Below are positions 7,881 through 63,539 of a DNA stretch of 64,000 nt, piece by piece; position 1 is the first letter of the stretch, and every line of letters starts with the position of its first letter. Origin of the DNA: a virus (lineage: Duplodnaviria > Caudoviricetes); IMG/VR virus record IMGVR_UViG_3300011115_000575, positions 1,708 through 65,707 of that record, one strand, 5' to 3'. The notes under the pieces were generated by a model that did no database searches, had not been told where the DNA came from, and saw nothing but the letters and a program-made list of their open reading frames with translations. The position numbers and the translations under genes were made by a program.

Positions 7881-9307
7881 AAAAATCATCCCAAATTATT
7901 GACACAATGCTTGAGCAAGACTTGATAGCCTACTTGCTTGAGAATTCTCATAGTATTAATGAAGTTTCGAAAGTTATAACATCTGAATCCTTTACTGATC
8001 CATTGTTTAAGGCATCATTCTTTGCGATGGTTGACTTATCTTTAGATAAAGGTCTATTCACACGATTCGATGTATTTCGATTGCTTAAATCAAAGGAATC
8101 TGAATTAGGAATAAATTCTTCAAAGCTAATTTCGGTAATGCCTAATCGTTCTATCGATTCTATGCAAGTCGCATTTGCTTTAAAGGAGTTAGAGAATAAG
8201 AGAAGAATCTACGAGATGGCTGTTAGTCTTGTGTCGTGTATAGAAGATGGAGAAGAAGTTTCCACGATGACCACACTAATAGAGAATGGCTTAACGGATA
8301 TGATTGATGCCTCCGCATCTAAGGAAGTTTATGGTATCGACCAAATCTATGATGAAGTAATTGCAAAAATGGAAGCTTCTGCTGGAAGTGAGAAAACTTT
8401 TAGTGGCATCGACACCGGATCCCGAAAATTAAATTATGCGTTGGGCGGGTGGCAAGAAGGTATGTCAATCGTATCTGCAAGACCATCGATGGGTAAGACT
8501 ATAGTTGGACTTGACTTTGCTAAAGCTTGTGCTAAATCGGGAAAGAAGTGTTTGTATCTATCTCTTGAGATGCCGAAGGAGTCGTTGATTTACAGATACA
8601 TTTCATCAGAAGCATTTGAATACAATTACTCTGACCTAAAGGCTAATCGGATTAAACCCGAAGATGTCGAGAATATTAAACGTTCAAAAGCAAGGGAGTT
8701 AAAGAATCTTCCTATTTACTTTTATGATTCCGATAACAGGGATGTCAATTACTTATCAATGATGATGACTGCCGAAGTTCGCAAGAATGGAATTGATATG
8801 ATTGTAATTGATTATTTACAGCTTATGGGGGATAACCAAGTTAAAGGGCAAGATGATTTTACTCAAGTATCTAAAGTAAGTAATAAGATTCAGAAGCTAA
8901 CAAGGAAGTTAGGCATCCCAATCATTTGTTTATCGCAGTTGTCAAGGTCGGTTGAGTCAAGGGCTAATCGCCAGCCTATGCTATCAGATTTGCGGTCATC
9001 GGGCAATATTGAACAAGATGCTATCGTTGTAATTGGATTATATCGTGATGATTATTACAAGTATGTTGACGCAAAATCTAATAACCAACCCGTTGCCCCT
9101 ATGGATAATACGTTGAAGTTTATTATTCTAAAGAATAGGGATGGCGAAGTCGGAGATGTAAACAGATTTGTTGATGTTAAAACTAATCGAGTTGCTGATA
9201 GTGAAGAAGAACTCTTTCAGTTTACAAAGCCAGAAATATTATATCAGAATTCTGTATTAAATATTATGCCAAATGATTTTTCAAACGAAACAATAGCCCC
9301 ATTCTAA
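7874..9307 (+). CDS. dnaB: Replicative DNA helicase, DnaB family
   Basis: ARPSMGKT Walker A, SLEM, IDYLQL, LSQLSR, SDLRSSGNIEQDA, KNRDG. Confidence 0.95.
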   Translation: MVKKSSQIIDTMLEQDLIAYLLENSHSINEVSKVITSESFTDPLFKASFFAMVDLSLDKGLFTRFDVFRLLKSKESELGINSSKLISVMPNRSIDSMQVAFALKELENKRRIYEMAVSLVSCIEDGEEVSTMTTLIENGLTDMIDASASKEVYGIDQIYDEVIAKMEASAGSEKTFSGIDTGSRKLNYALGGWQEGMSIVSARPSMGKTIVGLDFAKACAKSGKKCLYLSLEMPKESLIYRYISSEAFEYNYSDLKANRIKPEDVENIKRSKARELKNLPIYFYDSDNRDVNYLSMMMTAEVRKNGIDMIVIDYLQLMGDNQVKGQDDFTQVSKVSNKIQKLTRKLGIPIICLSQLSRSVESRANRQPMLSDLRSSGNIEQDAIVVIGLYRDDYYKYVDAKSNNQPVAPMDNTLKFIILKNRDGEVGDVNRFVDVKTNRVADSEEELFQFTKPEILYQNSVLNIMPNDFSNETIAPF

Positions 9308-9308
9308 T

Positions 9309-9515
9309 ATGACACCTAAAGAAAAAGCAGAAGAAATTTATGATAAATGCCTAAATAAAATACAAGGATTAGAAGGCATAGTATGGTGGGAATCTGCCAA
9401 ACAATGTGCATTAATTACAGTAGATGAGATATTAAATAATGATTATCCTCCATTTGAGTTTGAATCTGATTTTATGTACTGGAATGAAGTTAAACAAGAA
9501 TTAGAAAAGCTATGA
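9309..9515 (+). CDS. Small hypothetical phage protein
   Basis: MTPKEKA...AKQCALI.VDEIL...YW.EVKQE pattern recalled from Bacteroidota phages. Confidence 0.7.
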   Translation: MTPKEKAEEIYDKCLNKIQGLEGIVWWESAKQCALITVDEILNNDYPPFEFESDFMYWNEVKQELEKL

Positions 9516-9664
9516 GCATACTAAAGAAAATGAAAAAGAAATGGTATGCTTTAAACTCGCATCGAATAGATGAGATAAAAGACCAAAAGGCGGGAGAAGA
9601 ATTAATGAGAATTGTTAAAGAATTAGACAACCATATAAAACAAAAATCAAATGAAAAAATATAG
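9512..9664 (+). CDS. Small hypothetical protein (50 aa)
   Basis: ATGA overlap with the previous gene; fills the gap. Confidence 0.45.
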   Translation: MSILKKMKKKWYALNSHRIDEIKDQKAGEELMRIVKELDNHIKQKSNEKI

Positions 9665-9911
9665 AATAATAGAAATTAAAGAGCCAGATATTATAAAAGT
9701 TTCTGAAATAGGTTGTTTGCCTTATATGCGTCAAATAGGCTACAGAGTGCAGTATAAAATTGAAGAGTTAAAAGAAATAAAACTTTTTCCTTGGGGTAAA
9801 AGAAAAGAATGGGTTGATATTGGAAACTATTATGAAAAAATAGAACACGCTGAATTTGATATTAAATTTTTTCAAACAGAATCAGTTAAAACTATAATAA
9901 AAGAATACTAA
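9651..9911 (+). CDS. Hypothetical protein
   Basis: Operon-packed ORF. Confidence 0.6.
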   Translation: MKKYRIIEIKEPDIIKVSEIGCLPYMRQIGYRVQYKIEELKEIKLFPWGKRKEWVDIGNYYEKIEHAEFDIKFFQTESVKTIIKEY

Positions 9912-10162
9912 TGGCAAATAAAAAAACAGCATTACAACGAGCAATACTCGTATTAAAGAAAAGACAATGGCTTTATGAAGGTGTTGATGATGAGATGGCT
10001 TCGGTAATAGAGGAATGCATTTTGGGTATCGAGAACTATCTTGATGTAGAACAAAAGCAGATTATAAAGGCATACAAAGATGGCATTGAAGATATGGCAA
10101 TAGGTCAATACTATAAACCAAAACATTATTTTGAAAATAACTTTAAACAACAAGACAAATGA
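9911..10162 (+). CDS. Hypothetical protein
   Basis: E.KQII.AY..G...Y.....F pattern; operon-packed. Confidence 0.65.
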   Translation: MANKKTALQRAILVLKKRQWLYEGVDDEMASVIEECILGIENYLDVEQKQIIKAYKDGIEDMAIGQYYKPKHYFENNFKQQDK

Positions 10163-10362
10163 GAACAATAACTAAATCTGTAATTAATTTATCTGAAATA
10201 CCAAAAGAATTACAAAACAATGAGCTATTGCTTGGACACAAGAAATACACTTTGATTGAATTTCATATCGATGATTCAGAGAATGATTTATTGACATTAT
10301 GGTTACTTAATAGCTATCCAACATTAAAACGTAAGATTAGTTTTTTTATTTATATAGATTAA
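10159..10362 (+). CDS. Hypothetical protein flanked by 20-bp direct repeats
   Basis: TTAAACAACAAGACAAATGA at 10143 and 10359. Confidence 0.6.
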   Translation: MRTITKSVINLSEIPKELQNNELLLGHKKYTLIEFHIDDSENDLLTLWLLNSYPTLKRKISFFIYID

Positions 10363-15340: not shown

Positions 15341-15550
15341 ATGGAAGATGCAAGATTTGATAAGTTGTTGTATACAGACAAGGAACTTAGAGGGATGTTG
15401 GGGATTACTGCAAGGAAACTTGCTCATTATCGAAAGGAAAAGTTTATTGTTTATATAGATACAAAGCCAATTCGCTATACAAGGAAAATGATACAAGACT
15501 TTTTAGAATATGTTAACAAGTATCCCGGATCCCTAGTTTCTAAAAAATAA
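15341..15550 (+). CDS. MerR/excisionase-like HTH protein
   Basis: LYTDKELRGMLGITARKLAHYRK...IRYT...IQDFL. Confidence 0.7.
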   Translation: MEDARFDKLLYTDKELRGMLGITARKLAHYRKEKFIVYIDTKPIRYTRKMIQDFLEYVNKYPGSLVSKK

Positions 15551-16644: not shown

Positions 16645-17312
16645 AAGTATTAGAATTGTTTGCCGGATCCCGTTCAATAGGTAAAGCTGCTGAAGAATTA
16701 GAGATGGAAGTATTCTCATCTGATCTCTTACCATTTGATGGGATAGATTACGCTTGTGACATCAGAGAGTTTGATTTAGCAAAGCTACCATTTGTTCCCG
16801 ATGTAGTATGGGCATCCCCGCCTTGTACGGCATTTTCTGTTGCCTCAATAGGCAGACATTGGAAGGGAAGTAAGAAAGGCTCTTATGTGCCATTTACTGA
16901 CTCCGCAAGACTTGGCTTAGAATTACTTGATGCAACACTAAAAGTAATTGAGCAGATTAATCCGAAGTTTTTCTTCATTGAAAATCCACGAGGATTAATG
17001 AGGAAGATGCCTCAGCTTGAGCACTTTTATAGGCACACAGTTACTTATTGCCAGTATGGGGATACGAGGATGAAGCCTACAGATATTTGGCACAACCAAG
17101 TGTCGTATCAACCAAAGCCACATTGTAATAATGGAGACCCTTGCCATACTCCTGCACCAAGAGGTTCGCAGACAGGAACACAAGGATTAAAAGGAGCTTA
17201 TAATAGAAGTAAAATACCACACGAGTTTTGCTTAGAAGTAATGGAGTTCTGCAAGAAACAGAATGAAACTTATTTACTTTTTCCCGCCACGAGACCTTTT
17301 ATCGCCCGCTGA
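16641..17312 (+). CDS. DNA cytosine-C5 methyltransferase
   Basis: LELFAG (motif I), ASPPC (motif IV), IENP (motif VI). Confidence 0.85.
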   Translation: MKVLELFAGSRSIGKAAEELEMEVFSSDLLPFDGIDYACDIREFDLAKLPFVPDVVWASPPCTAFSVASIGRHWKGSKKGSYVPFTDSARLGLELLDATLKVIEQINPKFFFIENPRGLMRKMPQLEHFYRHTVTYCQYGDTRMKPTDIWHNQVSYQPKPHCNNGDPCHTPAPRGSQTGTQGLKGAYNRSKIPHEFCLEVMEFCKKQNETYLLFPATRPFIAR

Positions 17313-22000: not shown

Positions 22001-25000
22001 CAAACCATTGCTTATAAAGCCCCAAATATTTACTATTAAGGAAATCTTTATTAAACCATTTAAGGAAACTATCATTTTTACGAGCTTCCATAGAGGCACG
22101 GGCAGACTGAAGTAAATCAATGTCTATTAAATCAGCTTTGTCAACTCCTGTTTTTGCACGAATAGTTTGTTGCTTTGTAATCTTAATTGCATTGGCATCG
22201 AATACAACATAATTCATTAACCCATCTTGTCTTCCTCCTTGAGCATAATATGTAGGAACTCTAATTCCATCAACTCCAGCTTGCTGTAATAACCAAGAAG
22301 CCATTTGTTGTGCTGTAGTTAAAAAATTATCTCCAGATTTATTAGCATAAGGCATAGATGCGAATCGATACTGAATAGATTCATACACATCAGACCCATT
22401 TTGAGACAAGAATTGCAACCCCTTACCTCCTCCATTATATTCGTTTAAAATAAAATTAATTACACTTAATGAGTCTTTAGTATATTGGTCTTTATAAGAT
22501 AGCATCTGCATTGCCCTTTGCATACTTAAAAGCCCCGCAAACGCAGTTGTTGCTGCTTGTTGATTATAAGGACCAGAACGATGCCAATCAAACCATACTC
22601 CATCACTAACTCTTTGCCCTGTAACGTGAGCTGTATAATGATTTCTTTCTCCGAATGCATTATACAATTTCTCTCGATTAGATTTTGAAATACTTAATCC
22701 AAGAAATCCTTTATTATCTTCTAAGAATCTTTTCCAATCTGCAAGTCTTGTATTTGGATTCTGCAATATTTTATATGCTTTTTTCTGCAAATCCTTTCCT
22801 AAAAAATCAAGGTAATTTAATCTATTCATTTTATTCCCTTGATTACTCATAGCATATGCATTAGCAACATCAAAGTCTTCACTTAAATAGATTCCCCAAC
22901 CATACGCTTGAGCACCTTCTCCTGTTCCAATTTTCTGATTATTAAATCGGGCAAAACTCCAAGGGGATCCGTGATAAAGGATTCTCTTTTGAGATATGAA
23001 TTCTACTTTATTGTCAGAACCATCTGTAACTTCTTCCTCAATTTCTTTTGAAATTACTTTCTCAGAAACAGGCATCATTTTATAATTAGCTTTTGCTATC
23101 TCAGACTTTGCCTCCTCTGTTGGAGCAAAACCAATTCCTTTTGCCACATTTGTAGCTACATTAGGGGCTTTTGGTCTTAACAACCCTTTAGGAGCAAGAT
23201 ATTCTTTTTTGAATTTAGACTTAACTGTGCCTTTTAAATCAGAGTATGTTCTTGTTTCAAAGGACTTATCACGAGATTCTTTTTCATAGAACTTATCTTC
23301 AGTATAGATATCTCTAACCATTTGATCCCTCTCTGCTTCAGTTAATTTATTAGGGTCTATTTCCGATTCTGGCTCTGCAAATTTTGCAAAGTTTTCGTTT
23401 ACTCCATATAATCCATCAAGAGTGAAATGATTAGTACCAGCAAGTTTAGCATTAAACATATCGTGAACAATACCTTTAGATTGCAACGCTTCAATTTGGT
23501 CGTCACGTTCTATTCCTTCTGGCAATACATCTAATTCAAATCCACCTACTACATACCCTCCTTTGTCATTATTAATTAAATCATCGGTTAATATTGTATT
23601 ATCTCCGTATTCTTTAAGGAAATTATAAAAACTATAATCAATTTTATTAAATGCTATTTTACTATATCTTGTCCCGACATCAGTTTTTGTGCCTGAATTT
23701 TTAGGTAAAATCCCAAGTCCAATAACTTTTCTTACATCGAATGTAGTTTTGTCAATATATTCTTGCTGCAAATCCGCTAATACTTTTTCAGACATATTAG
23801 GAGTAACCTTATTGAATATATCAATTATTTGCTGTCTTTCTGTTTTATTCTTTGCTACTTTGCTAACAGTTGTACTTGTATTGATAAAATTAGCAATAGC
23901 TTCCTTTGATTTAATTAAATCCTCTTCACTTGTATTTGCAATTTGAGATAATCCTCTGAATAAATATTTTACTCCGTAAGCATTATTGATTGCAGTAGAG
24001 GGATTTTGAATCATAATTAAAACTGCAACTTTCCCTTGTCCGTAACTATTAAATGCAGCAGTATATGTACTTTTTACTGTACTTACATTTAAACTTGCAA
24101 ATCCAATTCCATCTTTTACGTTCTGAGCATTTAATGAAAATCCAAATCCTCCAAAGATTGGCTCTCCTTTGCTGTCAACACCGTATCCTGTAGCATCACT
24201 TGTAATAATAACAACTCTTCCATTATATTTCTCAACAACATCGTTAAGGCTCATAATAGGATGAGATACAGTCTCAAGCATAGGAATAGTTTTAGGGAAT
24301 TCATAATCCCCTATACGTTTTTCGTTTATTTCATCTAACGGAGTATAATCAATTTCAGATGGGAATGGTATAGCAATACCTTCATCATATGTCTGGTCCG
24401 AAGATATCTTTTGACTAATCTCATCCGATGAAGCAGTTACACCTTCTTTAGTAAATTGCTTTGTGAATTCCATATTCACATCTGTTCCTTCTCTTAAAGA
24501 TTTTGCAAATGATTCAAAGAATTTAGCAAGTTCTTCGGTTGAATTTGTGGTAGCACCTACTTTGTCAGCAAGCTCCATTAGTAACTTATTATTAATCTTA
24601 GCAGCGTACTTTTTAACAAGCTCACGAAGCCCCAATATAAATTTTTGACCAATTGAGCGATTTAAAGCAAAGTCTACTTCAACAACAATATTTTCTCCCG
24701 CCTCATTTACTTTTGAAAATGATAATCTTTTAGCAGTAAGTACCCCAAGTAATTCAGATAAGAATTCTTCTGCCATTACATTTTCTCCTTTTTCTGCATA
24801 TAGATTAGAGAAGTTTTGTAAGTAAGAAAGTTCAGCCTTAGAAAGCATCCCTTTTAATTTATTAACCATCTCAACAAATGCTGCTGGGTCAGAATCTCTT
24901 ATAAACTTAACTGCTTCGTGGAATATCTCATGAGGAACAGTTGCGTCATCTGCAATAGATATGTTGATATGAACAACACCACTATGCTGTAATCCCATTG

Positions 25001-27563
25001 ATCCTTTAGCAGCTTCTCTTGCCCTTTTAGCAGTAAATCCTTGAGCAACAAGCCCCTTTGCCATTTTCTTTTCACTATCATACAATATGATTTGAGCATT
25101 TGGGCTAAAGCTCTTTAATGCTTTATAGTAATTAGCAAAGCGTGATTTTTGATTAGGAGTAAGTTTTCCTAACACTTCATTACCTTGTACAGATTCAATA
25201 TCTTCGCTAACAGAATATCCTTCATTGGATGCCTTAACTAAAGATTGTCTTGCTTGAACCGCTTGTAAGTAGGAAACAAGTTCATCATTATTAGTATTAA
25301 ACGTTTTCTTACCCTTTGTATCAGTAATTGTTGCTGAAATCAATTTCCCATCTTCATCACGTTTAATTTCACCAACCTCTAATGTGCCTTTAATTTTAAA
25401 TGGCTCATTAGATTTGTTTTCGCTTTCCGATTTATAGGCAAATGATTTACGAACAGGAGCCATAGTTACATCTCCATTTTCATCAACGCTTGCTCTCAAT
25501 GAAATATTTCTACCATCTTCAGTTTTAAACTTAAAAAGTTCTCCTTCGAATCTATTATTACGCACTTTCTTTGACCTCTCAGCCCTTAACTCTGAGTTAG
25601 TGGTACGATTGGGTGTTGCGTCTGCTTCTGTCAGCAATTTGCCATTCTTTGTAATCTTATCATAAGACTCTAATGAATCTAATCTAGAGTATACATCTTG
25701 CAATACATAGTTTCTTTCTTGATTAGTTAATTGGTCATCAGCAATAACGCTCGCCTCTAAATCATACAAAGAAGAGGTAGCTTTATTTACTTCATTAATG
25801 TCAACTAATTCCCCTGCTTGAATACTGTCAAGTAGGTCTTGATTATTTTCTGTAAATCCGAGATAGTAGTTATTTTCTGTCAAGTAATTGGCAGCTTTCT
25901 CTCTTGATAGTTTTTGTTGTTCCTTAACCGCAGCAGAGCTTCTTGAGTATATTGCATCAATATTCTCTTTCATTATAGCATCTACCTTAGCTTTCTTTTC
26001 TTCTATAATAGCATTTGAAGCTGCGACTAAACTTTCATCATGAAGTTCTCTTTGCGAGTCTTCTTCTGATCTAATTTCATTTAATGTATTAATTACTTCT
26101 GCCCGCTTGTTTACATTTTCAATATCAGAAATTAACCGATAGTTGTCATATGTTGCACCAGCATTAGAATCTCTAATATCTTTAATTTTATTAGCTGCTG
26201 ATTCTCGAATTTCTTTTGAAAAACTTTCATTGTCTGCAACTTCTTTGTAACGCTTAATAGATTGTTCTTGCTCAGAAGTTAATTTTACCCGTGAAGCCCG
26301 TGCCGCTATACCACTAACTACTCCACCAGAAGCAGCTCCTAAGACAAATGCATCTATAGAACTTTGAATTAATTTATTATACTCTGCGGGATCAAATTTA
26401 TTATCAGCAACTCTGTCTATTACAAAACTACCAACATTAGCAATTATTTCTTCTACCCCTTCTTCATTAGCTCCAGCAAATGCTTTCTTAACAATTCCTC
26501 CATATCCACGAATAAGGGCTTCTTTTGTAGCTTCTTTCCCTTCCGAAGAAATTATCTTTCTTAAACTATTAAATGCTTCTATATCTGTTCTAAATATAGT
26601 TTCTGTTAATCCCTCAACAATACCTTTACCTATTGATACTAAAGCATCTTTCCCTGATATCTCTCCATCTTTAGCATACTCTTCTCCTAATGAAGCTCCC
26701 GCTCCCATTAATCCTGCTCCCGTAAATACGGCTCCAGCGGATCCTCCCGTTAAACCAAGTGCTACAATTTGAGGCATTTGTTGAAGAGAACTTAACCCAA
26801 GATTAATAAACGCATCTCCTACTTTTCCTTCTTGAAGTAATTCAGTAAATGTTTTATCTACGTCTGCGTTAGCAATTCCATAGTCAGTCTTAGCTTGCCT
26901 CATAAATGAGTTACTAACATTTTGAAGAGTTTGAGCTTGTTCATACAATGCACCAGCTACTCCTTCTGACGAGGCTACCTTTGTGTTAACTTGGTCTTCT
27001 TTGCTAATTAAACCTTTTGCACGAGCTCCAATATTTTGCATGAAATCTGCTGCACCACCAAGAATATTTAAAGCGGTTGCTCCTACTGTTCCTATCCCTC
27101 CTGATATTAAAGACTCCACCATTGGGAGTGTTCCCGTTTTATCTGCAAGAAAAGAATATCCTCGTGTAGTTATATTTGATGACAATAAATTTGATGTAAC
27201 AATATCATCAATAGCCGCACGTTGCTTTAACCCTTTTTGATAAGCCAATTTTTCTTCGGCTGTCATTTCATCCGAGTCTCTATCGTAAATTCCTTGTTTT
27301 TTAGTTAACTCTTGAGCAAAAGGAGCTGTACCTAACCCTGAATGGATAGGTTGTGCTTTTGAAAAATAATCTGCAATATCAGAAAATAACCCCCCAGAAT
27401 CTTCCTGCCCAGATAATGCCGTAACGTCTTTTTTTTTTGAAATAGTTTCGTACTTCGAAAAGTCAATACTACTTAAATTAGAAGAAGTATCAGTAGAAGG
27501 CTTAGATTCACTAACGTCCCCGTATTTTGAAAAATCTATTGGTTGAAGCCGTTGTTTAGACAT
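19098..27563 (-). CDS. Giant polyvalent virion/ejection protein (HExxH metallopeptidase, ART-like and LPD38-like domains)
   Basis: PHEIFHE; LYHGSP..F..F....IGTGEGAQAYGWGIYL; C-terminal MDY..GG...PYFN region; last large gene of the tail operon. Confidence 0.8.
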   Translation of the reverse strand: MSKQRLQPIDFSKYGDVSESKPSTDTSSNLSSIDFSKYETISKKKDVTALSGQEDSGGLFSDIADYFSKAQPIHSGLGTAPFAQELTKKQGIYDRDSDEMTAEEKLAYQKGLKQRAAIDDIVTSNLLSSNITTRGYSFLADKTGTLPMVESLISGGIGTVGATALNILGGAADFMQNIGARAKGLISKEDQVNTKVASSEGVAGALYEQAQTLQNVSNSFMRQAKTDYGIANADVDKTFTELLQEGKVGDAFINLGLSSLQQMPQIVALGLTGGSAGAVFTGAGLMGAGASLGEEYAKDGEISGKDALVSIGKGIVEGLTETIFRTDIEAFNSLRKIISSEGKEATKEALIRGYGGIVKKAFAGANEEGVEEIIANVGSFVIDRVADNKFDPAEYNKLIQSSIDAFVLGAASGGVVSGIAARASRVKLTSEQEQSIKRYKEVADNESFSKEIRESAANKIKDIRDSNAGATYDNYRLISDIENVNKRAEVINTLNEIRSEEDSQRELHDESLVAASNAIIEEKKAKVDAIMKENIDAIYSRSSAAVKEQQKLSREKAANYLTENNYYLGFTENNQDLLDSIQAGELVDINEVNKATSSLYDLEASVIADDQLTNQERNYVLQDVYSRLDSLESYDKITKNGKLLTEADATPNRTTNSELRAERSKKVRNNRFEGELFKFKTEDGRNISLRASVDENGDVTMAPVRKSFAYKSESENKSNEPFKIKGTLEVGEIKRDEDGKLISATITDTKGKKTFNTNNDELVSYLQAVQARQSLVKASNEGYSVSEDIESVQGNEVLGKLTPNQKSRFANYYKALKSFSPNAQIILYDSEKKMAKGLVAQGFTAKRAREAAKGSMGLQHSGVVHINISIADDATVPHEIFHEAVKFIRDSDPAAFVEMVNKLKGMLSKAELSYLQNFSNLYAEKGENVMAEEFLSELLGVLTAKRLSFSKVNEAGENIVVEVDFALNRSIGQKFILGLRELVKKYAAKINNKLLMELADKVGATTNSTEELAKFFESFAKSLREGTDVNMEFTKQFTKEGVTASSDEISQKISSDQTYDEGIAIPFPSEIDYTPLDEINEKRIGDYEFPKTIPMLETVSHPIMSLNDVVEKYNGRVVIITSDATGYGVDSKGEPIFGGFGFSLNAQNVKDGIGFASLNVSTVKSTYTAAFNSYGQGKVAVLIMIQNPSTAINNAYGVKYLFRGLSQIANTSEEDLIKSKEAIANFINTSTTVSKVAKNKTERQQIIDIFNKVTPNMSEKVLADLQQEYIDKTTFDVRKVIGLGILPKNSGTKTDVGTRYSKIAFNKIDYSFYNFLKEYGDNTILTDDLINNDKGGYVVGGFELDVLPEGIERDDQIEALQSKGIVHDMFNAKLAGTNHFTLDGLYGVNENFAKFAEPESEIDPNKLTEAERDQMVRDIYTEDKFYEKESRDKSFETRTYSDLKGTVKSKFKKEYLAPKGLLRPKAPNVATNVAKGIGFAPTEEAKSEIAKANYKMMPVSEKVISKEIEEEVTDGSDNKVEFISQKRILYHGSPWSFARFNNQKIGTGEGAQAYGWGIYLSEDFDVANAYAMSNQGNKMNRLNYLDFLGKDLQKKAYKILQNPNTRLADWKRFLEDNKGFLGLSISKSNREKLYNAFGERNHYTAHVTGQRVSDGVWFDWHRSGPYNQQAATTAFAGLLSMQRAMQMLSYKDQYTKDSLSVINFILNEYNGGGKGLQFLSQNGSDVYESIQYRFASMPYANKSGDNFLTTAQQMASWLLQQAGVDGIRVPTYYAQGGRQDGLMNYVVFDANAIKITKQQTIRAKTGVDKADLIDIDLLQSARASMEARKNDSFLKWFNKDFLNSKYLGLYKQWFERNVNIRKELEKAEMVYAMQMMYNKAGASQFAQLKFGKYRKEIYGGLNKNGVAIVDSVTQLRRVIAIDANFDNQRNALLEQADAVKQQIEDENAIITNPKSTSEEKAIANESINSLKNDLAKLMRKAKTKERPEHGKHNDVNDKNKKIVSNKESAEASLAKLEKKIGVEAYAEFNKRADTYFKAFSDLLKYKLDSGLITEATYEMFKDYDYQPRNFLRFAYGQLYEDANGNMVKETPLQSNSFVNRGSMLSSDELKKISGGDMDYLDADSARLLQSALVTAEIRVSTNKALKALAEDSKLANYGFIKEAEYEKYKDGTIKLDSDGTPKFIAPTDNRFINMVYKVDGKKYAFQLKNTEETPLADEFNDIEMRDLKGEQYKFWSKWLGAGIMKTFATGINVAFPITNIPIDVISQIHLTDIYEGTIAERYQQAMMGTLEMAKRLTAAEFNLGDKSEISNLIYEFAETGGLMMSLTREYSPQMEGNWGKIVDGLGTFGNISELASKLNAYQTVKDRLVDQYYEKNGFEAREEDLEKIKTEAAYKSRAAMDYHRGGTSSKWLDGFAPYFNVMMQVSKISASYISNNKVEFGKKIGGAGLFVMAVTMYNMMVAAGDYDNDDVQRDIINNLVIFNTYKNADGTRGYTKVAVPPTVKWFLNRFQHIAEGVYLKEVLQDPKRIEKWQERTSIWKETSNMFAPRFGSILPPVAKGMIEYGFNYDIWRSKQIVEQDKNRKTSPFLEGVKNKNVAEFWKAIAATDFGKGVELSPAKAQKFADDIFPLTNPLISMGYSLIDKSVNQFTEMPESYRSKFNKENAWTSVPSSIGDAIKDRFKGTTNPDIRYDNPEYAKIKMGESDKLFMMHDKIKSMVDDGVSMHDIRVYAKSQGREYVQGIQNYALNLKKKDKIQYKIYEPDYFAMAFAPDARAKAEIMVEFEKTNEIPNMELYRKDLRRFGILNSNVRKIYEELKSKEK

Positions 27564-29248: not shown

Positions 29249-30103
29249 TTATGAATTAAAAAGGCTTCCAGCCATGCTAGCTCCTTGCATATCTTGCCAT
29301 CTTATAGGTTTCCCATTAGTCTCTGCTAAACCCATCATTTTTTGCATATCATTGGTTTTCATATTTTGCATACCAATTTGATTTAACCCTGAACTAAATG
29401 TTCCAAGTATACCCGCTCCTGCATTCCACATTGATTGATGAGCTTGGTCAATAATTCCTTGAGCTGTCATTTCAGATTGAAATCCTTGCTGATTTAAAGC
29501 CATTCTGCCAGATAAATCTTGCCCCATTAAACCAAGCATACCTTGTTGATTTGCTTGTTGAGAAGCAAATGATCTATATCCCTCCATTGCTTTTCCTGCA
29601 GCTAATTGACCTAATGAACTAAGGTTAGCCATTCTTGTTTGTCGCTGATCTTGAAGCATATTTTGTTGCCCCTCAGAAATAATTCTACCTTTTTGTGCTC
29701 CAACATTTTGTTGCCCCATCAATAATGATGTAGCCATATCTGCACGAGAACCACCTAATTTACCTGTAGCTTGTACAAGATTAGCATACCCTTGGTCGGC
29801 TTGGTCTAAAGCAAATTGGTCAAGTGCAGAACGAGTTGCACCAGAGGCTTGAACTTCATTCATACTTGCCTTATCAGCCATCGCTTGATAGGCTGTAGTA
29901 TCAGCTTGGTAGGTTGGAGCAGCTTTTTGAAAAGCCATCATTTGTGCCATTTTCTCATCCCAACCAGCTTGCTGATTACGATTAAACATTGACACTTGAT
30001 TCTTTTGATTTTCAGCTCGTTTAATAGCACTATTTGCACCAATCATGCCAACAATTCCACTGGCTATACCACCTACTGCTCCAGCAATTGAAAACGGATC
30101 CAT
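29249..30103 (-). CDS. Probable DNA ejection (pilot-like) protein
   Basis: MDP..IAGAVGG Gly/Ala-rich N-terminus, Q/M/A-rich coiled coil. Confidence 0.65.
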   Translation of the reverse strand: MDPFSIAGAVGGIASGIVGMIGANSAIKRAENQKNQVSMFNRNQQAGWDEKMAQMMAFQKAAPTYQADTTAYQAMADKASMNEVQASGATRSALDQFALDQADQGYANLVQATGKLGGSRADMATSLLMGQQNVGAQKGRIISEGQQNMLQDQRQTRMANLSSLGQLAAGKAMEGYRSFASQQANQQGMLGLMGQDLSGRMALNQQGFQSEMTAQGIIDQAHQSMWNAGAGILGTFSSGLNQIGMQNMKTNDMQKMMGLAETNGKPIRWQDMQGASMAGSLFNS

Positions 30104-53594: not shown

Positions 53595-54413
53595 TTACCC
53601 TAAACGGGTCTTGATGGCATTAAGCTCATCCGGATTGTTTTCTTCTAGGTAGTCAGCTAATTCCTTAATGTAATTCTTATTAGGAGATTTTTTGTATTTA
53701 AAAATTTCCTTTTCAGTATCTGACCATTCAAACACTTGTGAATTTACATTATTTTTTATAATTCCTTGTTTAATAGCTTCTTTTAAAACAGATTCTACTC
53801 CAAGAGATGCTCTTTCAACAATTGACATAAATTCTTCTGGATTTGTTTCTGCAAAATCTTCTAATTGATTGCGTACTTCATCTAATGATTCTGCTTCAAT
53901 TCCAAGTGCCATCCCAACTTCTTTAGCTCTAGTGTCATCTAATTCTAAAGCCATATTAATTGCTTTCACTATCAACTTTCTAGTTGTTCTTTCTTCTATA
54001 GCTTCTTTCTTATTATCAACTCTATAAAAAACCGGATCCCCTTTTTCTTCACTTCTATCTTTATTAGAAGCATTGTAATTACATAATTCAAGAAATTGAT
54101 ACATCTTTTGATGAACCGAATTATTCCCATTCAAAAATATGTAACCAAGATTATTTGCAGAAAAAACTATGCTTAAAAAAATAGGTTCGCCCTTATCATT
54201 TTGGCTTTCTATTGCAGCTATATTTACAAACTCCCCTTTTTGTTTATCAAATACTTGATCACTAGATGGGATTTGGTGAGCGGCAGGAATTAAAAACTTA
54301 CCGTAATTATCGGGATCAGGTCTTACATTTAAAACCCTATAAGTTGCCCTTTCGTCTTGTTTAAGAACTCTCTTCATAGAAGGAGAGAAGTTATTGTATT
54401 CTGATGCTTTCAT
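53595..54413 (-). CDS. Hypothetical head-associated protein
   Basis: Immediately downstream of the major capsid gene. Confidence 0.6.
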   Translation of the reverse strand: MKASEYNNFSPSMKRVLKQDERATYRVLNVRPDPDNYGKFLIPAAHQIPSSDQVFDKQKGEFVNIAAIESQNDKGEPIFLSIVFSANNLGYIFLNGNNSVHQKMYQFLELCNYNASNKDRSEEKGDPVFYRVDNKKEAIEERTTRKLIVKAINMALELDDTRAKEVGMALGIEAESLDEVRNQLEDFAETNPEEFMSIVERASLGVESVLKEAIKQGIIKNNVNSQVFEWSDTEKEIFKYKKSPNKNYIKELADYLEENNPDELNAIKTRLG

Positions 54414-54473: not shown

Positions 54474-54489
54474 ATGATAATCATTGGAA

Positions 54490-56973: not shown

Positions 56974-59271
56974 CTATTTTTTATAATCTGACATTTTAAT
57001 AGCAGATTTCTTTATCTCTGCAATATACTCTCTTGAGTCAGCTTCTATTTTACTCATATCTATTTTACCAGACATTTTCATTTGCTCAATTTGTGCTTCC
57101 ATTTGAAGTTTCATTAGAAGCATTTGCGATTCAAGCTCTTTTTCTTTTTGAATAACCGCCATTTTAGCTTGAGTTTCTATTTGAATAGTCTGCTGTTGCA
57201 TTTGAGCTGCTACTTGAGCAGATTGTTGCTGAATCTGACCATTCATTTGTTGTTGTTGCATTGACCTTTCTTGAGCATCTTCTTGGTTCTTACTTATTTT
57301 GTATGCTAATAATAATTCAGCATACTTTAAGTTATCCAAATTTTCAACCATCATTGCGTCAGCCAATGTTATTTGCCCCGCTTGTATTGCCTGCTCAATT
57401 CTTCTATCTAATTTTTCTCTATCTGCTTCTGTTGGTTTTTGTTCGATTATCAAACCACATTCGTAAGCAGAAACATTAGGATCTAACTTAAAGAATTGAA
57501 CTGTATTAGAACCTAATGCTCTAACAAATCCATCAATAGTCCCCATTTGAGCAGCATCTTGAATTCTTAAAGTTAACGAATAGCATAACCTCTCTAGTAA
57601 GTTTCTTTCAGAACGCTTAATATAGTCAAGAGAATTATTTGTTGATTCAGATGCATACTTGGCTACTCCCTTTAATGTGCGGGGATCCGGCGTTGAACCA
57701 TCTGTAATCTCATTAAACCCTAATATATCTCTCAATAATTGAATATTGTTTGTAATAATATTAAAGTATTGTACAGCTTCATTCCCAATACCGTTTTCAA
57801 GTTCTTCAATTGGTTTGTAGTTACTTGCTTGCCCTTCATCATTTAATCTACGATAAACTAAATTTCCAGTTTGATTATATAAATCTATAACATCCATTGG
57901 TTTAAGAGCTTTGCCTCCTCTACCAATTGGCACATTTTCCAATGCACCTAACTCTATCATTATACCTCTTGGTCTTGCCCTAAGCATTACATTTTGTAAT
58001 TTATACCAAGCCATTTGTATCTGGTCCGCAATTGGTTTCATTTGTTCACCTAATGAATAGGTGTTCATTTGATATAATTGTGGAGCAACAACGTGATAAG
58101 ATAAAGTAGTTTCAGTCATTGAAGACTTAGCCCTCTTCATATTTGTAGCTAATTGGCAATCAAAAAACATATCAGAATCAATAATCCATTTACCTTGATA
58201 CACAACTTTATAATCAGTTTTGGTATATTTCTTATCTGACTTATTGTTTTTTATTTTACTTGCTCTACCTACAACTGTATTTCCTTTTGAGTTAACTCTT
58301 TCTTCTTGTATAAAATGATTTACAGAATAAAACTCCAAGTCAAGAACTCTAATTCTAAAACCATCATAGTTTCTATTTTGGTTTGAGTTAACATTTTTAA
58401 GTAACGCAGGATTTCCTAATTTATTTGTATACTTAGCTGCAATTATTTCGTATTGAGCTTCTGTAATTTGATCTCCCGCAAGTTCTTTAAGATCAGAAAT
58501 TGTCATCTCAAGTACTTCTCCAAAATATTGAACATCTTCAAAATTCGGATCAATAGCATATGACATAACCATATTTGCTGGAGATACATGGCGGGTTTTA
58601 ATTGTACCTGACCTATCAAAGTATTCTTTGTAAGCAGTAATACCGTAATCAATTAAGTCTTCAACTGCTTTTTCTCTTTGTTGAGGAAATTTGTTTAAAC
58701 TTAATATTAATTCCAACGCTTGCTCCATCTCAATTGCCATTCTATGCTTATATGAATAGTTCATATACATATCAAGCTCCTTTAATGAAGAAGCATCAAC
58801 ATCGGGGTCTGGCACCAAACTTGGGTCAATCCCTTGTTTTTTAAATTCTTCTTTTACTATAAGTGCAGATGCATTCTTTGCGTAAAATTCTTTTTTATCG
58901 TCTTGTGCTAACGGGTCAATTGCGTCAACAGAAATAGTATAGTCGGCTTTTAATAAAGTAGCTAAAGCTATTCTTCTAAACTTTGGGATAATTGGTAATA
59001 TATCCCAGTTAATATTAATCCAAGATTGGTCTTCGTTAGCAACTTGATTAGGTTGAAATAACTTCTTATATCTACTTACCGATTGTTTCCCAAGCATATA
59101 CAACTTGGTTTCATGGTACTTATCTCTTCCGTTATAAAGTTGATTAGGATAATAAGTTGAAAAATCCATCCAAGCGGATTTTATATATTGAGCAATCCAT
59201 TTTTTATCCTTTTGAGAAGAATCTAATAGGTGGCTTGGAAAACCAAGTGTCGAAGTTACGTTATCATCCAT
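56974..59271 (-). CDS. Portal protein
   Basis: W..LPIIPKF, IQLLRDILG.NE..DG.TP, Q-rich C-terminus; follows TerL. Confidence 0.88.
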   Translation of the reverse strand: MDDNVTSTLGFPSHLLDSSQKDKKWIAQYIKSAWMDFSTYYPNQLYNGRDKYHETKLYMLGKQSVSRYKKLFQPNQVANEDQSWININWDILPIIPKFRRIALATLLKADYTISVDAIDPLAQDDKKEFYAKNASALIVKEEFKKQGIDPSLVPDPDVDASSLKELDMYMNYSYKHRMAIEMEQALELILSLNKFPQQREKAVEDLIDYGITAYKEYFDRSGTIKTRHVSPANMVMSYAIDPNFEDVQYFGEVLEMTISDLKELAGDQITEAQYEIIAAKYTNKLGNPALLKNVNSNQNRNYDGFRIRVLDLEFYSVNHFIQEERVNSKGNTVVGRASKIKNNKSDKKYTKTDYKVVYQGKWIIDSDMFFDCQLATNMKRAKSSMTETTLSYHVVAPQLYQMNTYSLGEQMKPIADQIQMAWYKLQNVMLRARPRGIMIELGALENVPIGRGGKALKPMDVIDLYNQTGNLVYRRLNDEGQASNYKPIEELENGIGNEAVQYFNIITNNIQLLRDILGFNEITDGSTPDPRTLKGVAKYASESTNNSLDYIKRSERNLLERLCYSLTLRIQDAAQMGTIDGFVRALGSNTVQFFKLDPNVSAYECGLIIEQKPTEADREKLDRRIEQAIQAGQITLADAMMVENLDNLKYAELLLAYKISKNQEDAQERSMQQQQMNGQIQQQSAQVAAQMQQQTIQIETQAKMAVIQKEKELESQMLLMKLQMEAQIEQMKMSGKIDMSKIEADSREYIAEIKKSAIKMSDYKK

Positions 59272-59273
59272 AA

Positions 59274-61283
59274 TTAAAACGGAAATACATCTCGTATTTC
59301 ATATAGTTTTTGTTGTTGTTCAATCTTTTGAGTAAACTTTGATTTACTCGATGCAATTAAGGTATAACCACTCGCCATTGCTGCATCAAATTTAGTTGTT
59401 TTATTTATATCAAAGTGCAACCAATCGTTTAAAAGTTTTGGAAATTTTACTTTATGTAAATTATCCATTATATAACTTTCTGTTTCCTCGGCTATCTGTT
59501 GGTGCACCTTTGTGCTAGCAGATATACCATACTTAGTAGAATTGGGCATTTTAATTAAAAACTTTTCGTATCCTCTATATTCAAAGTACTTAATTAAACC
59601 AATTTTTTGATCCTCAGAAAGTATTTCACAACCAAAAAAATGGCACAACTTAATCATATCCTCATAAAATATTTCTGCTTTATCAGGTCTATTTAAGTAT
59701 TCAATTAAAAATGTTTCACTCAACTCATCTGTTGCATCAAATCTCCTATAGACATATGCTGCTCCATCAGAACGTTCATTGCTTGTTGTTATCGAATGGT
59801 CAAAGGGGTCAACTCCAATTGCATATTTTGTTTTAGCTTTTGGTGTTTTCTTTGTGCCATACTCCTCAACTTGGTTATATGAATCAACGTCTTGTGGGTT
59901 TACTTCTTTTATTACAAGAAACTTACCCGTAGAACTTTCTTTAAAAATAACCTTGCTATCACGAACTCCATCTTCCCAGATAAATTCTCCTTGCAAATAT
60001 AATTCTTTTTTATCAATCCACGATATTGTTTCAATTTGCCTATTGATTGCCATTGCATCATATAAGCAAGTCTCTCCTTCACTAAAGAATGCCTCCTCAA
60101 TAGTAAATGGGTTTTTACGAATATAAGATGCTAATGCTCTACTATCAGATGACAACGCATCCCTTGCATTTATATAATAATCTTTTGCTTTTTCTTCGTC
60201 TGCAAATCCATACTTATCGTAGAATAGTGTTTTATAGGCGGGCATAAAGTATTGGTATAGCCCTGACATTGTTCTTCCATTCTTATCTCTTTTGGATTGG
60301 TCTGATGCCATCCAAAGTTGTTTAAAAGATGCTCCCCCATCTTCCATCTCCTCAACAGTAGTAGTATATAAAGCCTTACCAATAATATTTTCTTCTTGTT
60401 GTAAACAAAATTGAACCACTTGATGACGGTCATAAACATCAACATTCTTTGTTTTGCCCGCTTCATCCGCAAGGTATCTATGTAATTTCGTTCCATCGTA
60501 TGAGAATTTATCTGCTGACTTAAATGTAATGCTTGACTCAAGTTCTATCTTTTTATCAAAATCAAAATCAGATGCACCCCTCTTATTTGTTTTAAAGAAA
60601 CGAAGTTCTCCTTTAGGGGTCATACCTTTTTCAGTATCGTAAATCGGAATAAAGAAATCGGGTAGGTATTTAAATGGCATTACAACACCTTTAGCAAAAA
60701 CGTTTTCTTTTGCATCTTCAAACGTTTTACTTTGTATACCTGCGTTTTTATTTCTACTACGGGAAGTAAGCTCAAATAAAAAAGCACCCGCCCTCATTGT
60801 CTTACCCTGTCTACGTTTTGTTACCTCAATCATTCCTAGACTGCGTGGGTCTTGGCATACATATTCTAAAAAGTAAAAAAACTCTTTGTCCGTAATACGA
60901 AAGTCAGGATACCCTACATCTATTTTCCAATGGACCAGATAAAAATAATGAAGCCCTGTAATATAAGTGGCATGACCATTGTTATAAAACCAAAATCCAT
61001 TTAATCTTCTATCCCACTCTTGATTTCTATAGTTCTGAAGCTCACTACTTTGATAATCAGCATTTGTTTTTTGAGATAACATCTCACGCTTTCTTTTTGC
61101 TTCGTAATCATCGGGTGGCAAAGGTCTCTCCCAATACTGATTTTCCTTCCGCATAGACCGCTTAACCGGATCCCTTTTTTCCCATTCATTTGTGATAATA
61201 TTATATACCCACCCAATAGGAGGAACATTTACCGTAATCCCATGAATATCAAGTTGTTTTGAATTTTTATGAACTCTATACAT
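59274..61283 (-). CDS. terL: Terminase large subunit
   Basis: KRRQGKT Walker A, DEAGK Walker B, GVDPFD nuclease motif; likely start ATG 61283. Confidence 0.92.
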   Translation of the reverse strand: MYRVHKNSKQLDIHGITVNVPPIGWVYNIITNEWEKRDPVKRSMRKENQYWERPLPPDDYEAKRKREMLSQKTNADYQSSELQNYRNQEWDRRLNGFWFYNNGHATYITGLHYFYLVHWKIDVGYPDFRITDKEFFYFLEYVCQDPRSLGMIEVTKRRQGKTMRAGAFLFELTSRSRNKNAGIQSKTFEDAKENVFAKGVVMPFKYLPDFFIPIYDTEKGMTPKGELRFFKTNKRGASDFDFDKKIELESSITFKSADKFSYDGTKLHRYLADEAGKTKNVDVYDRHQVVQFCLQQEENIIGKALYTTTVEEMEDGGASFKQLWMASDQSKRDKNGRTMSGLYQYFMPAYKTLFYDKYGFADEEKAKDYYINARDALSSDSRALASYIRKNPFTIEEAFFSEGETCLYDAMAINRQIETISWIDKKELYLQGEFIWEDGVRDSKVIFKESSTGKFLVIKEVNPQDVDSYNQVEEYGTKKTPKAKTKYAIGVDPFDHSITTSNERSDGAAYVYRRFDATDELSETFLIEYLNRPDKAEIFYEDMIKLCHFFGCEILSEDQKIGLIKYFEYRGYEKFLIKMPNSTKYGISASTKVHQQIAEETESYIMDNLHKVKFPKLLNDWLHFDINKTTKFDAAMASGYTLIASSKSKFTQKIEQQQKLYEIRDVFPF

Positions 61284-61315
61284 ATTATAATGATTGGTAA
61301 ATGCCTTTTCTAATT

Positions 61316-61798: not shown

Positions 61799-61815
61799 AT
61801 TTTTTTTTGTTAATA

Positions 61816-62373
61816 TTATAAGTTAGATATTGCCTCAGGGGTCATACTTAATATTTTATCTTTTTTATCGCTATTATCTCCAAACAGTTTCTCTTCATAA
61901 GCCTCAATCCTTTTAATAATAGCATCGCATTCTCCCATTAACTTTGATTTAATTTCTAATGCTTGTAGTTTATCCTTATCATTTTTAAAATCTTTAATAG
62001 GATTCAATAACTCTTGCTGATACTGCCACAACACCTCTTCGTTAGCGGCTAATATTGACCACACCTTGGACTGCTGATACCGAAGATAGGCATTTACATA
62101 ACCTACTATATTTGGATGGCTTAAATCAAAGATTTGTTCATTAGCTTTTAACCCTACTAATTCAGCACACTCCTTCTTCCTATCTAATAACAAAGGTATC
62201 TTTAACCTAAGCGGAGACTTGCTATCATATAACAATATTACATACTTAATAATTGCTTCTTCAGTTGGAGATACTTTACCAAACAACTGCTCAATAATTT
62301 TCTGTTTAGCAAAGTTCTTTGCAAATGGGTCTATTGTTAAAACCTTAAAATCTTCTTCAGTAAATAATGCCAT
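61816..62373 (-). CDS. Putative terminase small subunit
   Basis: Position upstream of TerL, size and helical composition. Confidence 0.5.
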   Translation of the reverse strand: MALFTEEDFKVLTIDPFAKNFAKQKIIEQLFGKVSPTEEAIIKYVILLYDSKSPLRLKIPLLLDRKKECAELVGLKANEQIFDLSHPNIVGYVNAYLRYQQSKVWSILAANEEVLWQYQQELLNPIKDFKNDKDKLQALEIKSKLMGECDAIIKRIEAYEEKLFGDNSDKKDKILSMTPEAISNL

Positions 62374-62483
62374 AGTATATTATATTTTATTTCGGCGGGC
62401 TGGGGAGACCCGAAATCTTTTTTCTTTTTTTTCTTCTTTTAGGAGTGTTAATAATTATTTGAAAATAAATTGAAAATAATTTG

Positions 62484-62616
62484 CATTATATTTTTTTATA
62501 TTAACTCTATTATTATATTTAATATTATGGTGATACTATAGCATCACCCCCCTGCTGCTATAGCATCACCCCCCCTGCTTGCCGAGTATCACCCCCTGCT
62601 GCTATAGCATCACCCT
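62484..62616 (-). repeat. Second, inverted copy of the origin (four iterons plus AT-rich tract)
   Basis: Reverse complement matches 7481-7597, including CTCGGCAAGCAGGGGGG and TAATAATAGAGTTAATA. Confidence 0.85.
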
Positions 62617-63271
62617 AAAAAGCATTATATTTACCCAATATATCCCCTTGACGTATTGTATAATAAGATTTTCCCTCTATCGTGTTTTCAAAATTGAGTG
62701 ACTTTTCAATCAAAACTTTTTCACCCAAATTCACACCAATAGAGTTTACATTTTTCAACGGTTTTCCAATATGTCGCATAATTGCAACTTTGGTAGACTC
62801 CTTTTTTCCAATAGATGTCACTAATCCAGAACTATTTGTGACAGCAGATATCTTTACACCATTAACTTCTACCTGCGAAAACTCTTCTTCCCCTTCAACC
62901 ATTTTCTCGCAGAATGTCCAACCGCCAATAGGTATAATATCAGTACCCCTGACCACACAAAAAATCCAACAATAAGGTATTCTATAATAGTTGCCATAAA
63001 GACAAGCATTCTCATCAAACGTTGCCAAGTAATGAAAGTATACTTTATCGCCAACTTGTACGTCAGCTTCAATTTCAATCCCGTCTTCATTATAGCACTT
63101 GCCTTTTGGGATAGCTTTAACCACTCCGTATATTCTTGCATTGTGTGTGGGTTTATATAATGGGTCTATAAAGATAGATAATGAGCCGTATTGGACTGTG
63201 TCATCGTATTGTGCACCAACCTCAACGATTAAACTATTAGGCGATGCTTGAGATAGCTCGTATTGTAACAT
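62615..63271 (-). CDS. GroES-like co-chaperonin with two tandem GroES-like domains
   Basis: G.V.A.P.G...VQVGDKVYF and GEKVL...IEGKSYYTIRQGDILG. Confidence 0.65.
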   Translation of the reverse strand: MLQYELSQASPNSLIVEVGAQYDDTVQYGSLSIFIDPLYKPTHNARIYGVVKAIPKGKCYNEDGIEIEADVQVGDKVYFHYLATFDENACLYGNYYRIPYCWIFCVVRGTDIIPIGGWTFCEKMVEGEEEFSQVEVNGVKISAVTNSSGLVTSIGKKESTKVAIMRHIGKPLKNVNSIGVNLGEKVLIEKSLNFENTIEGKSYYTIRQGDILGKYNAF

Positions 63272-63539
63272 ATTTTGTCTGTTTGGTTTATAAATCCAAA
63301 GTTATAGAATCATATTCATTTTTCATAATGCTTGCTTCTAAGGCAGTATTTTCTGCTGAGTAAAGTATATTGTTGTAAAAGTAATTATGCTTCAGCAGAT
63401 GGCAAGCAAAGCATAGTGTTGCTAACGTGTCAGCATTTTGTTAACGTTTATTTTCTACTAGCATTTTTTTTATACTGTGGGCTTGGAGTGACAAGGTTAT
63501 ATATATTATTGGGATCCGGTAGAAAAAATCCGCGAAATC

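Follow-up and report, generated by a model that had tools for sequence, protein, structure and literature searches.

We identified a nine-nucleotide word, CCGGATCCC, that is repeated exactly and at dispersed positions across the genome of a tailed phage (IMG/VR record IMGVR_UViG_3300011115_000575). The stretch of DNA analysed, referred to below as the window, is 64,000 nucleotides long and corresponds to bases 1708-65707 of this record, a single-contig virus genome of 65,707 bp labelled G000; positions are those of the window unless the genome is named. The feature is real, statistically robust and evolutionarily active. Judging from the comparison with related phages, the clade formed by G000 and its closest relative, G001, is accumulating the exact word RCCGGATCCC through synonymous or conservative codon changes where the encoded proteins allow them, on either strand and in any frame. 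The same comparison provides good support for selection or drive acting on the DNA word and not on the proteins, and some DNA-reading protein probably uses it. We tentatively propose, with a probability of about 0.4, that CCGGATCCC is the lineage-specific recognition word of a phage-encoded, sequence-specific DNA protein, of either a nickase/modifier or a stoperator-like type.

Enrichment and exactness of the word

Nine copies of CCGGATCCC are present in the window, compared to 0.05 expected, and none of 100 dinucleotide shuffles contained nine. In the whole genome there are ten copies against an expectation of 0.087 under an order-2 Markov model, making CCGGATCCC the most over-represented 9-mer. 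This enrichment persisted when every protein and the codon usage of each gene were kept: across 300 such codon-preserving shuffles of G000 the mean was 1.23 copies (a value that includes one fixed copy outside the called genes), the maximum was 3, and no shuffle reached ten. For G001, the corresponding 300 shuffles gave a mean of 1.42 and a maximum of 4, against the eight copies observed.

These results bear out most of what a first-pass annotation of the window, made from the sequence, had claimed. The nine coordinates and strands that it listed were all recovered, its hand estimate of about 0.05 expected copies agreed with the dinucleotide shuffles, and its count of about five CCGG sites elsewhere was exact (14 in the window, 5 of them outside CCGGATCCC). 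The near-copies that it reported are real (ACGGATCCC on the minus strand at 22964, and CGGATCC at 26738 and 30095), and the peptide contexts were correctly read as TGSR in DnaB, AGSR in a methyltransferase, NRIP, GDPV, PDP in the portal and RDPV in the large terminase. The two phage C5-methyltransferases that it named are likewise present, as two small C5-type genes. It had put forward Markov and codon-shuffle statistics as a check, under which CCGGATCCC was the top 9-mer and remained enriched. Its proposal that selection acts on the DNA is upheld by the codon-shuffle enrichment, by synonymous and conservative recoding, by the filling of 10 of 26 permissive positions, and by independent gains in two sister genomes.

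Copies were found on both strands, six on the plus and three on the minus strand in the window, and six and four in the genome, where they follow one another in the order - + + + + - + - + -. The tenth copy lies outside the window, at genome position 145. This copy and that at 63511 both sit in an imperfect terminal repeat of about 630 bp (genome 1-629 versus 65074-65701, the latter being window 63367-63994; 88% identity), and therefore represent one repeated locus, giving nine distinct loci. At 88% identity, either the terminal repeat is genuine and has diverged, or a circular assembly was closed across two strain variants. Eight of the nine loci are inside long genes (five sense, three antisense) and one is in a control region (Table 1).

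Recognition of the word looks all-or-none, since its one-mismatch variants sit at chance level (2, against about 2 expected). We found no second half-site within 40 bp on either side, and hence no bipartite arrangement, and the contexts flanking GATC followed no rule beyond coding bias. The sole flank preference was a purine at position -1, present at 10 of the 11 distinct loci of G000 and G001 combined, indicating that the fuller form of the word is RCCGGATCCC.

The tetranucleotide CCGG within the word is otherwise depleted in the window (14 sites, against 43.5 expected), and nine of these sites belong to CCGGATCCC. Across the genome, the word accounts for 10 of 15 CCGG and 10 of 13 GGATCC sites; all 13 of the latter are CGGATCC, 11 are CGGATCCC and 10 are the full CCGGATCCC.

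Copies arose by recoding of homologous codons

We compared G000 with five complete relatives, and with 36 IMG/VR loci and 30 metagenome loci recovered by a portal search. Among the complete relatives, G001 (98% portal identity, about 86-90% identical) has eight copies of CCGGATCCC and, in addition, two of CCGGATCCT; G002, G003 and G004 have none, and G005 has one. The word was found in 2 of the 36 IMG/VR loci, L001 (four copies in 15.6 kb) and L005 (one copy), and in 1 of the 30 metagenome loci (371 kb in total), L104, which has 97% portal identity and carries it at the large terminase site. As to the conservation in relatives to which the first-pass annotation had looked, six loci are shared with G001, and the four other complete relatives hold 0, 0, 0 and 1 copies.

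Six loci are exact in both G000 and G001, even though the flanks of the copies differ by 10-14% between them, and a seventh, in the portal gene, differs by the single mismatch of CCGGATCCT in G001. Each genome additionally has private copies, in the DnaB-like and 1229-aa genes of G000 and at positions 46049 and 51534 of G001, at sites where the sister still resembles the outgroups, indicating that gains continued after the two phages split. The locus between the early and late gene blocks is exact in G005, as its sole copy, and is represented in G004 by the near-copy TCGGAACCC; we therefore regard it as the oldest. Protein-compatible positions are filled by CCGGATCCC in 10 of 26 cases in G000 and 7 of 30 in G001, and in none of the 22-37 available in each of G002 to G005.

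At the aligned loci, the copies consist of substitutions at homologous codons without insertions or deletions. In the DnaB-like gene, G001 and the outgroups read ACAGGAAGTAGG or similar and encode the same peptide, with the serine codon AGT in G001, G002, G004 and G005 and TCC in G000; five of the nine nucleotides are not those of G001, identity in the rest of the region being 78%. At the HTH_17 site G002 reads CCCGAATCA, and at the second methyltransferase site G004 and G005 read GCTGGTTCCCG, which leaves the peptide unchanged with two synonymous differences. Similarly, 24 further relatives keep the portal peptide by other codons (for example CCAGACCCT), and the large terminase site of G002 reads CAGGGTCTC, three third-codon-position differences away from CCGGATCCC. 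Where G000 and G001 have arginine (CGG) in the 252-aa virion structural protein, each of the four outgroups has lysine (AAA or AAG). The alignments indicate that copies arose by synonymous or conservative changes, some of them costly, as in the serine AGT to TCC and lysine AAA/AAG to arginine CGG replacements. Contigs of three studies (four runs) bridge motif loci in window 44001-64000, and among the 40 listed of about 1200 differences none fell inside a copy, a sample that carries no verdict on conservation.

Other exact words and palindrome avoidance in related phages

We identified comparable words in other lineages. In G002 (L041-L044), GCCTCCGC occurs 13 times, against 0.2 expected under the Markov model and a mean of 1.94 (maximum 5) in codon shuffles; its copies are dispersed on both strands and were made largely by synonymous third-position changes. 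In a more distant pair of loci, L023 and L025 (49% portal identity), CCCCCGAGC is present in three and five copies in about 20 kb each; these lie at conserved, dispersed positions on both strands. (G)CTCCCGC is likewise in excess in G000 and G001, though less strongly.

Two further words were considered and set aside. GCGGGAGC, a secondary word of G000 and G001 with a Chi-like look, was rejected as a Chi-density word: in 121 Flavobacteriales its counts are only about 10-340 per genome, often no higher than those of its reversed control. The ten copies of ACCGCAAGG in L008 belong to a different kind of feature, a same-strand intergenic hairpin element of about 30 bp. Eleven same-strand copies of this hairpin-like element, GCGGTTGACCTAYACACCGCAAGG, lie between small early genes at positions 700-4900 of L008, and resemble repeats that act in regulation or termination.

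Avoidance of short palindromes is unusually strong in this family, and the set avoided differs from lineage to lineage. GATC, CATG, CCGG, GGCC, GCGC and CTAG are all missing from G002, and G000 has 0 GGCC, 1 GCGC, 53 GATC and 36 CATG. The distribution of GATC (43-64 sites in each of four complete genomes, zero in G002 and G003) matches that of the two small C5-methyltransferases, both of which are encoded by G000, G001, G004 and G005 and neither by G002 or G003. This suggests that the two enzymes protect GATC-containing sites, since they are present exactly in the GATC-tolerating genomes and missing from those with none. We found no literature on word avoidance or over-representation in Cellulophaga phages, and no search was aimed at CCGGATCCC itself.

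Search of candidate host genomes

We searched 401 Flavobacteriales and 401 phylum-wide Bacteroidota genomes, none of which showed the CCGGATCCC signature of the phage; the true host may lie outside this sample. The highest counts in Flavobacteriales were 166 copies in G042 and 155 in G015, or about one per 17 kb. Set against 0-7 copies of a reversed control these counts resemble an enrichment, which we rejected as a composition artefact: the parts of these genomes that were inspected are 51-53% GC and GATC-rich, and both CTAG and GGCC occur in the control. CCGGATCCC makes up 5-7% of GGATCC sites in the top Flavobacteriales (166/2982, 155/2341 and 64/859), compared to 10/13 (77%) in the phage, and the maximum ratio was 0.075 among about 45 genomes compared by eye, the highest-count genomes included. 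The 10-mer ACCGGATCCC, to which 6 of the 10 phage copies conform, has at most 53 copies per genome in the 401 phylum-wide genomes, of which the top five hold 1221-1806 CGGATCC each.

We additionally noted that a 4.6-Mb Flavobacteriales genome, G272, has partial strand blocks of CCGGATCCC and a run of spacings of about 210 kb; between 1,307,101 and 2,576,802 of G272:C1, seven same-strand copies are spaced almost evenly, about 193-222 kb apart.

The phage and its genes

The genome is organised into an early block on the plus strand and a late block on the minus strand. The early block encodes a DnaB-like helicase, an HTH_36 initiator-like protein, a PD-(D/E)XK exonuclease (phrog_298), a RusA-like resolvase, HTH_3 and HTH_17 proteins and the two small C5-type methyltransferases, which are 27% identical to each other. 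The late block encodes the portal, the large terminase, a virion structural protein, a 2297-aa tail-fibre protein, a 2821-aa polyvalent-type protein and a lysozyme. The exonuclease and RusA are carried by G000 and all of its relatives. We recognised no integrase or repressor in the genome, and found no tRNAs and no Rfam matches.

A nucleotide search of phage records gave no match to the genome. The portal protein matched 87 records, all at less than 60% identity, and the best of the matches listed, at about 27-30%, were podophages of Flavobacterium, Cellulophaga, Maribacter and Tenacibaculum. The portal region was present in contigs from freshwater, lake, river and drinking-water metagenomes of 11 studies (24 runs listed).

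Table 1. Occurrences of the word, its near-copies and core, and selected early genes of the window
Feature	Position	Strand	Context	Also found in
CCGGATCCC copy	8415..8423	+	DnaB-like helicase gene (7874-9307), sense, peptide TGSR	G000 only
CCGGATCCC copy	15525..15533	+	near 3' end of 69-aa HTH_17 (excisionase-like) gene (15341-15550), peptide PGSL	G001
CCGGATCCC copy	16663..16671	+	codons 8-11 of second small C5-methyltransferase gene (16641-17312), peptide AGSR	G001
CCGGATCCC copy	31905..31913	+	antisense in 1229-aa virion-region gene (30116-33805, -), peptide AGSG	G000 only
CCGGATCCC copy	34282..34290	-	sense in 252-aa virion structural protein gene (33831-34589), peptide NRIP	G001
CCGGATCCC copy	54032..54040	+	antisense in 272-aa gene (53595-54413, -), peptide GDPV	G001
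CCGGATCCC copy	57682..57690	-	sense in portal gene (56974-59271), peptide PDP	
CCGGATCCC copy	61166..61174	+	antisense in large terminase gene (59274-61331, -), peptide RDPV	G001, metagenome locus L104
CCGGATCCC copy	63511..63519	-	divergent region between early (+) and late (-) gene blocks	G001, G005
One-mismatch near-copy ACGGATCCC	22964..22972	-	inside 2821-aa gene	
One-mismatch near-copy CCTGATCCC	54312..54320	-	PDP peptide, 272-aa gene	
Core-only CGGATCC	26738..26744	+	ACGGATCCAT context	
Core-only CGGATCC	30095..30101	+	core without full word	
HTH_3 gene	15115-15339	+	early block	
First small C5-type DNA methyltransferase, 215 aa	3638..4285	+	PPCT and ENP motifs; phrog_757 at 5.6e-65	
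Second small C5-type DNA methyltransferase, 223 aa	16641..17312	+	PF00145 at 6.8e-8; phrog_757 at 1.6e-30	

Several other elements were observed. Two mutually inverted arrays, each with about three copies of a 22-23-bp unit, CTATAGCATCACCCCCCTGCTG, lie at 7482-7547 and 62536-62615, and G001 has matching arrays; the former is inside the HTH_36 initiator-like gene (7179-7880), an arrangement that we liken to the lambda-type origin within an initiator gene, and the latter is upstream of the packaging genes. AAGTAATTG occurs 11 times (63660-63840 and nine other places; 1.7 expected), and TCAATTACATT words, which are related to it, are concentrated upstream of early genes and in the early/late control region; both are probably promoter or operator elements. 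An HNH_3+NUMOD4 endonuclease gene (61316-61798), found only in G000 and G003, overlaps the start of the large terminase gene, and a 221-aa gene containing NUMOD3 (35233-35898) is confined to G000. The two genes probably encode mobile homing endonucleases; as readers of CCGGATCCC they are ruled out, being missing from G001. The 2821-aa protein (19098-27563) has weak, sub-threshold matches to ART-PolyVal/DUF3990 (ADP-ribosyltransferase of polyvalent proteins), and may be an injected, multi-domain counter-defence protein. Finally, a class-II glutamine amidotransferase N-terminal domain (PF13230, 7.9e-6) was identified in an early gene at 1195-1998 that all relatives keep; its product might act in a pathway that modifies DNA or nucleotides.

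Comparison with known dispersed words

The closest analogues of CCGGATCCC appear to be phage nick sites and stoperators. The nick sites of tf, phiKMV-like phages and T5 (localized single-strand interruptions, sci) likewise number about 8-14 exact copies of an asymmetric consensus of about 9 nucleotides, scattered through podophage genes. PMC3517423 describes 14 copies of a 9-nucleotide nick consensus in phage tf, and a slightly different word at partly similar positions in its relatives, which is read there as co-evolution of enzyme and site; the function of the sites is given as unknown. With ten and eight exact copies, and near-cognates at chance level, G000 and G001 lie within the range of about 5-15 repeats of an exact consensus seen in sci-site phages. 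In contrast to the known sci sites, which are all on one strand, CCGGATCCC is on both, and unlike nick sites it contains palindromes (CCGG, GATC and GGATCC) that the genome otherwise avoids. To our knowledge, no nickase family exists for which one could search.

For the stoperators of Cluster A mycobacteriophages, PMC6550527 describes 20-30 asymmetric sites bound by the repressor, with a consensus that changes together with it. The system (of the L5 gp71 type) combines genome-wide sites with a monomeric phage reader and one true operator in the control region (PMC6550527, PMC9283540). The word studied here is similarly asymmetric with a lineage-specific consensus, RCCGGATCCC in G000 and G001 and GCCTCCGC in G002; its oldest copy is placed between the divergent early and late blocks, and the genome has two small HTH genes (HTH_3 and HTH_17). 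Stoperators are 13 bp long, mostly intergenic, oriented with transcription and serve lysogeny, whereas CCGGATCCC is 9-10 bp long, mostly intragenic, codon-recoded and of mixed orientation.

A third likeness is with Chi, a short exact word which is over-represented in phages without recombination modules (PMC12315714), as more copies aid DNA survival or recombination. Chi, however, belongs to the host, in whose genome it is abundant, and the signature of CCGGATCCC was not seen in the sampled Bacteroidota; nor do its copies have the polarity of Chi relative to DNA ends or replication, and this phage does carry a recombination module, in the form of its exonuclease and RusA-like resolvase. Collectively, CCGGATCCC differs from nick sites, stoperators and Chi in lying on both strands, inside genes, and in being made by recoding. 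The DNA uptake sequences (USS/DUS) of Pasteurellaceae and Neisseriaceae are also exact words of 9-12 nucleotides on both strands, mostly in genes at peptide-permissive positions and made by codon choice. These are genome-wide in bacteria and tied to competence, whereas CCGGATCCC is found in a 65-kb phage of lytic type, with no host enrichment in the sampled genomes.

Alternative explanations

We considered whether the word might be set by the host, as a self signal: a Chi-like crossover or anti-degradation site, or another host word (uptake-type or translocase-guiding), accumulated by the phage to escape or exploit AddAB/RecBCD-type enzymes. The enrichment of host Chi in phages lacking recombination modules (PMC12315714) is a precedent, and a short exact word on both strands and inside genes, of which more copies are better, is what a self mark would look like; sister lineages might moreover have different words because their hosts differ. 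We nevertheless judge this reading unlikely, given the low share of CCGGATCCC among GGATCC sites in the Flavobacteriales compared, the scarcity of ACCGGATCCC in the phylum-wide sample, a strand pattern without polarity toward the ends, the exonuclease and RusA of this phage and all its relatives, and the sharing of the word by G000 and G001 despite their different tail-fibre genes. The length of known Chi words, 5-8 nucleotides, also counts against it. The host Chi-like site suggested in the first-pass annotation is weakened on these grounds, that is, by the lack of a signature in 802 Bacteroidota genomes, by the non-polar strands and by the recombination genes of the phage itself. A nick site or a protein-loading site, two other functions listed there, would be compatible with the data.

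The same annotation had suggested the word as a target of the two C5-methyltransferases, which fails to explain the enrichment, as G004 and G005 carry both enzymes (86-92% identity) and have 0 and 1 copies. This also counts against a related explanation, in which CCGGATCCC is a by-product of restriction-modification and not a functional site: CCGG and GGATCC would be tolerated only where an overlapping GATC is methylated by a phage C5-methyltransferase, so that the word would mark safe contexts. Extreme palindrome avoidance, the confinement of GATC to the four methyltransferase-carrying genomes, and the CGGATCC context of 10/15 CCGG and 13/13 GGATCC sites of G000 agree with this; the methylated bottom-strand cytosine of GATC would also be the outer C of the overlapping CCGG. 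Tolerance, however, can neither draw in rare codons nor yield an excess of about 100-fold (about 0.09 copies would be expected even if nothing were avoided), it gives no role to the third flanking C and the 5' purine, and the word of G002, GCCTCCGC, contains no 4-bp palindrome. We consider this explanation improbable. Still less probable is a mutational drive, in which templated or biased repair (very-short-patch-like, or by primer or oligonucleotide incorporation) converts near-cognates to the exact word. Such a process would account for copies that are exact without an excess of near-cognates, and for those that needed 3-5 changes within nine nucleotides, including a switch of serine codon family; accumulation by drive is established for bacterial uptake sequences. 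Near-cognates are, however, not depleted, about 75 open reading frames scanned included no Vsr-like, reverse-transcriptase or other candidate gene, and we know of no repair system with a specificity of 9-10 bp. An artefact of assembly or of a BamHI linker or adaptor, a worry raised in the first-pass annotation, has a negligible probability. The word contains GGATCC and resembles commercial linkers, but homologous codons are replaced without inserted bases and with unchanged length where the loci were aligned, G001, an independent assembly, shares six loci and L104 one, and the region is found in runs of 11 studies.

A proposed phage-encoded reader of the word

The lineage pattern fits a co-evolving, phage-borne reader better than a broadly conserved host signal. 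G000 and G001 have the word in common despite unlike tail-fibre modules, their relatives lack it, and a sister lineage has GCCTCCGC in its place; the specificity of the reader would therefore be a property of the phage lineage, as opposed to one of a broad host group. We suggest that RCCGGATCCC is read on double-stranded DNA by a sequence-specific protein, which we would guess to be an enzyme-like factor, as the all-or-none recognition of nine positions looks more like that of an enzyme than of a typical transcription factor. Nick-site phages such as tf, phiKMV and T5 would suggest a site-specific nickase or a modification enzyme, and stoperators a monomeric DNA-binding regulator; the first small C5-methyltransferase is a possible candidate for a reader or modifier of part of CCGGATCCC. 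Each added copy would confer a small advantage in DNA handling, through packaging or ejection, protection, or transcription control. The word may have originated at one regulatory or processing site and multiplied from there, given that its oldest copy sits in the early/late control region.

Several observations weigh against a phage-encoded reader of this kind. None was identified, and the six small open reading frames unique to G000 and G001 have no family matches or obvious DNA-binding signature. Nor is the word enriched in G004 and G005, although both encode the two C5-methyltransferases. The distribution over both strands (six plus and three minus in the window) departs from the one-strand pattern of known nick systems, and the mostly intragenic placement, five sense and three antisense, from that of stoperators. 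The excess of mismatches to G002 inside CCGGATCCC (26/63, compared to 394/1906 in the flanks; Fisher p = 2.5e-4) is partly due to ascertainment, the sites having been picked for a rare, GC-rich word in G000. A narrow, species-level host factor is also compatible with the data.

A bolder proposal, which we consider a long shot, is that the lineages of this freshwater family of Bacteroidota podophages each write their own exact word of 8-10 bp (RCCGGATCCC, GCCTCCGC and CCCCCGAGC). A fast-evolving phage protein would read this word as a self mark, or private Chi; phage DNA could then be spared, processed or protected during an attack on that of the host or a competitor, and close relatives would become mutually incompatible.

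Dispersed exact words such as nick sites, Chi and stoperators are rare windows onto cis-acting DNA biology, and nick systems have stayed unexplained after decades. Here, such a word has been caught while it is being built, by synonymous recoding, with independent gains in two sister phages and a different word in a third. It provides a clean evolutionary signature of strong selection at the DNA level, in an uncultured group of freshwater phages shaped by extreme avoidance of restriction sites. The reader, if found, would be new as a sequence-specific DNA enzyme or binder, its site being asymmetric and 9-10 bp long, and might represent a new principle of phage self-recognition.

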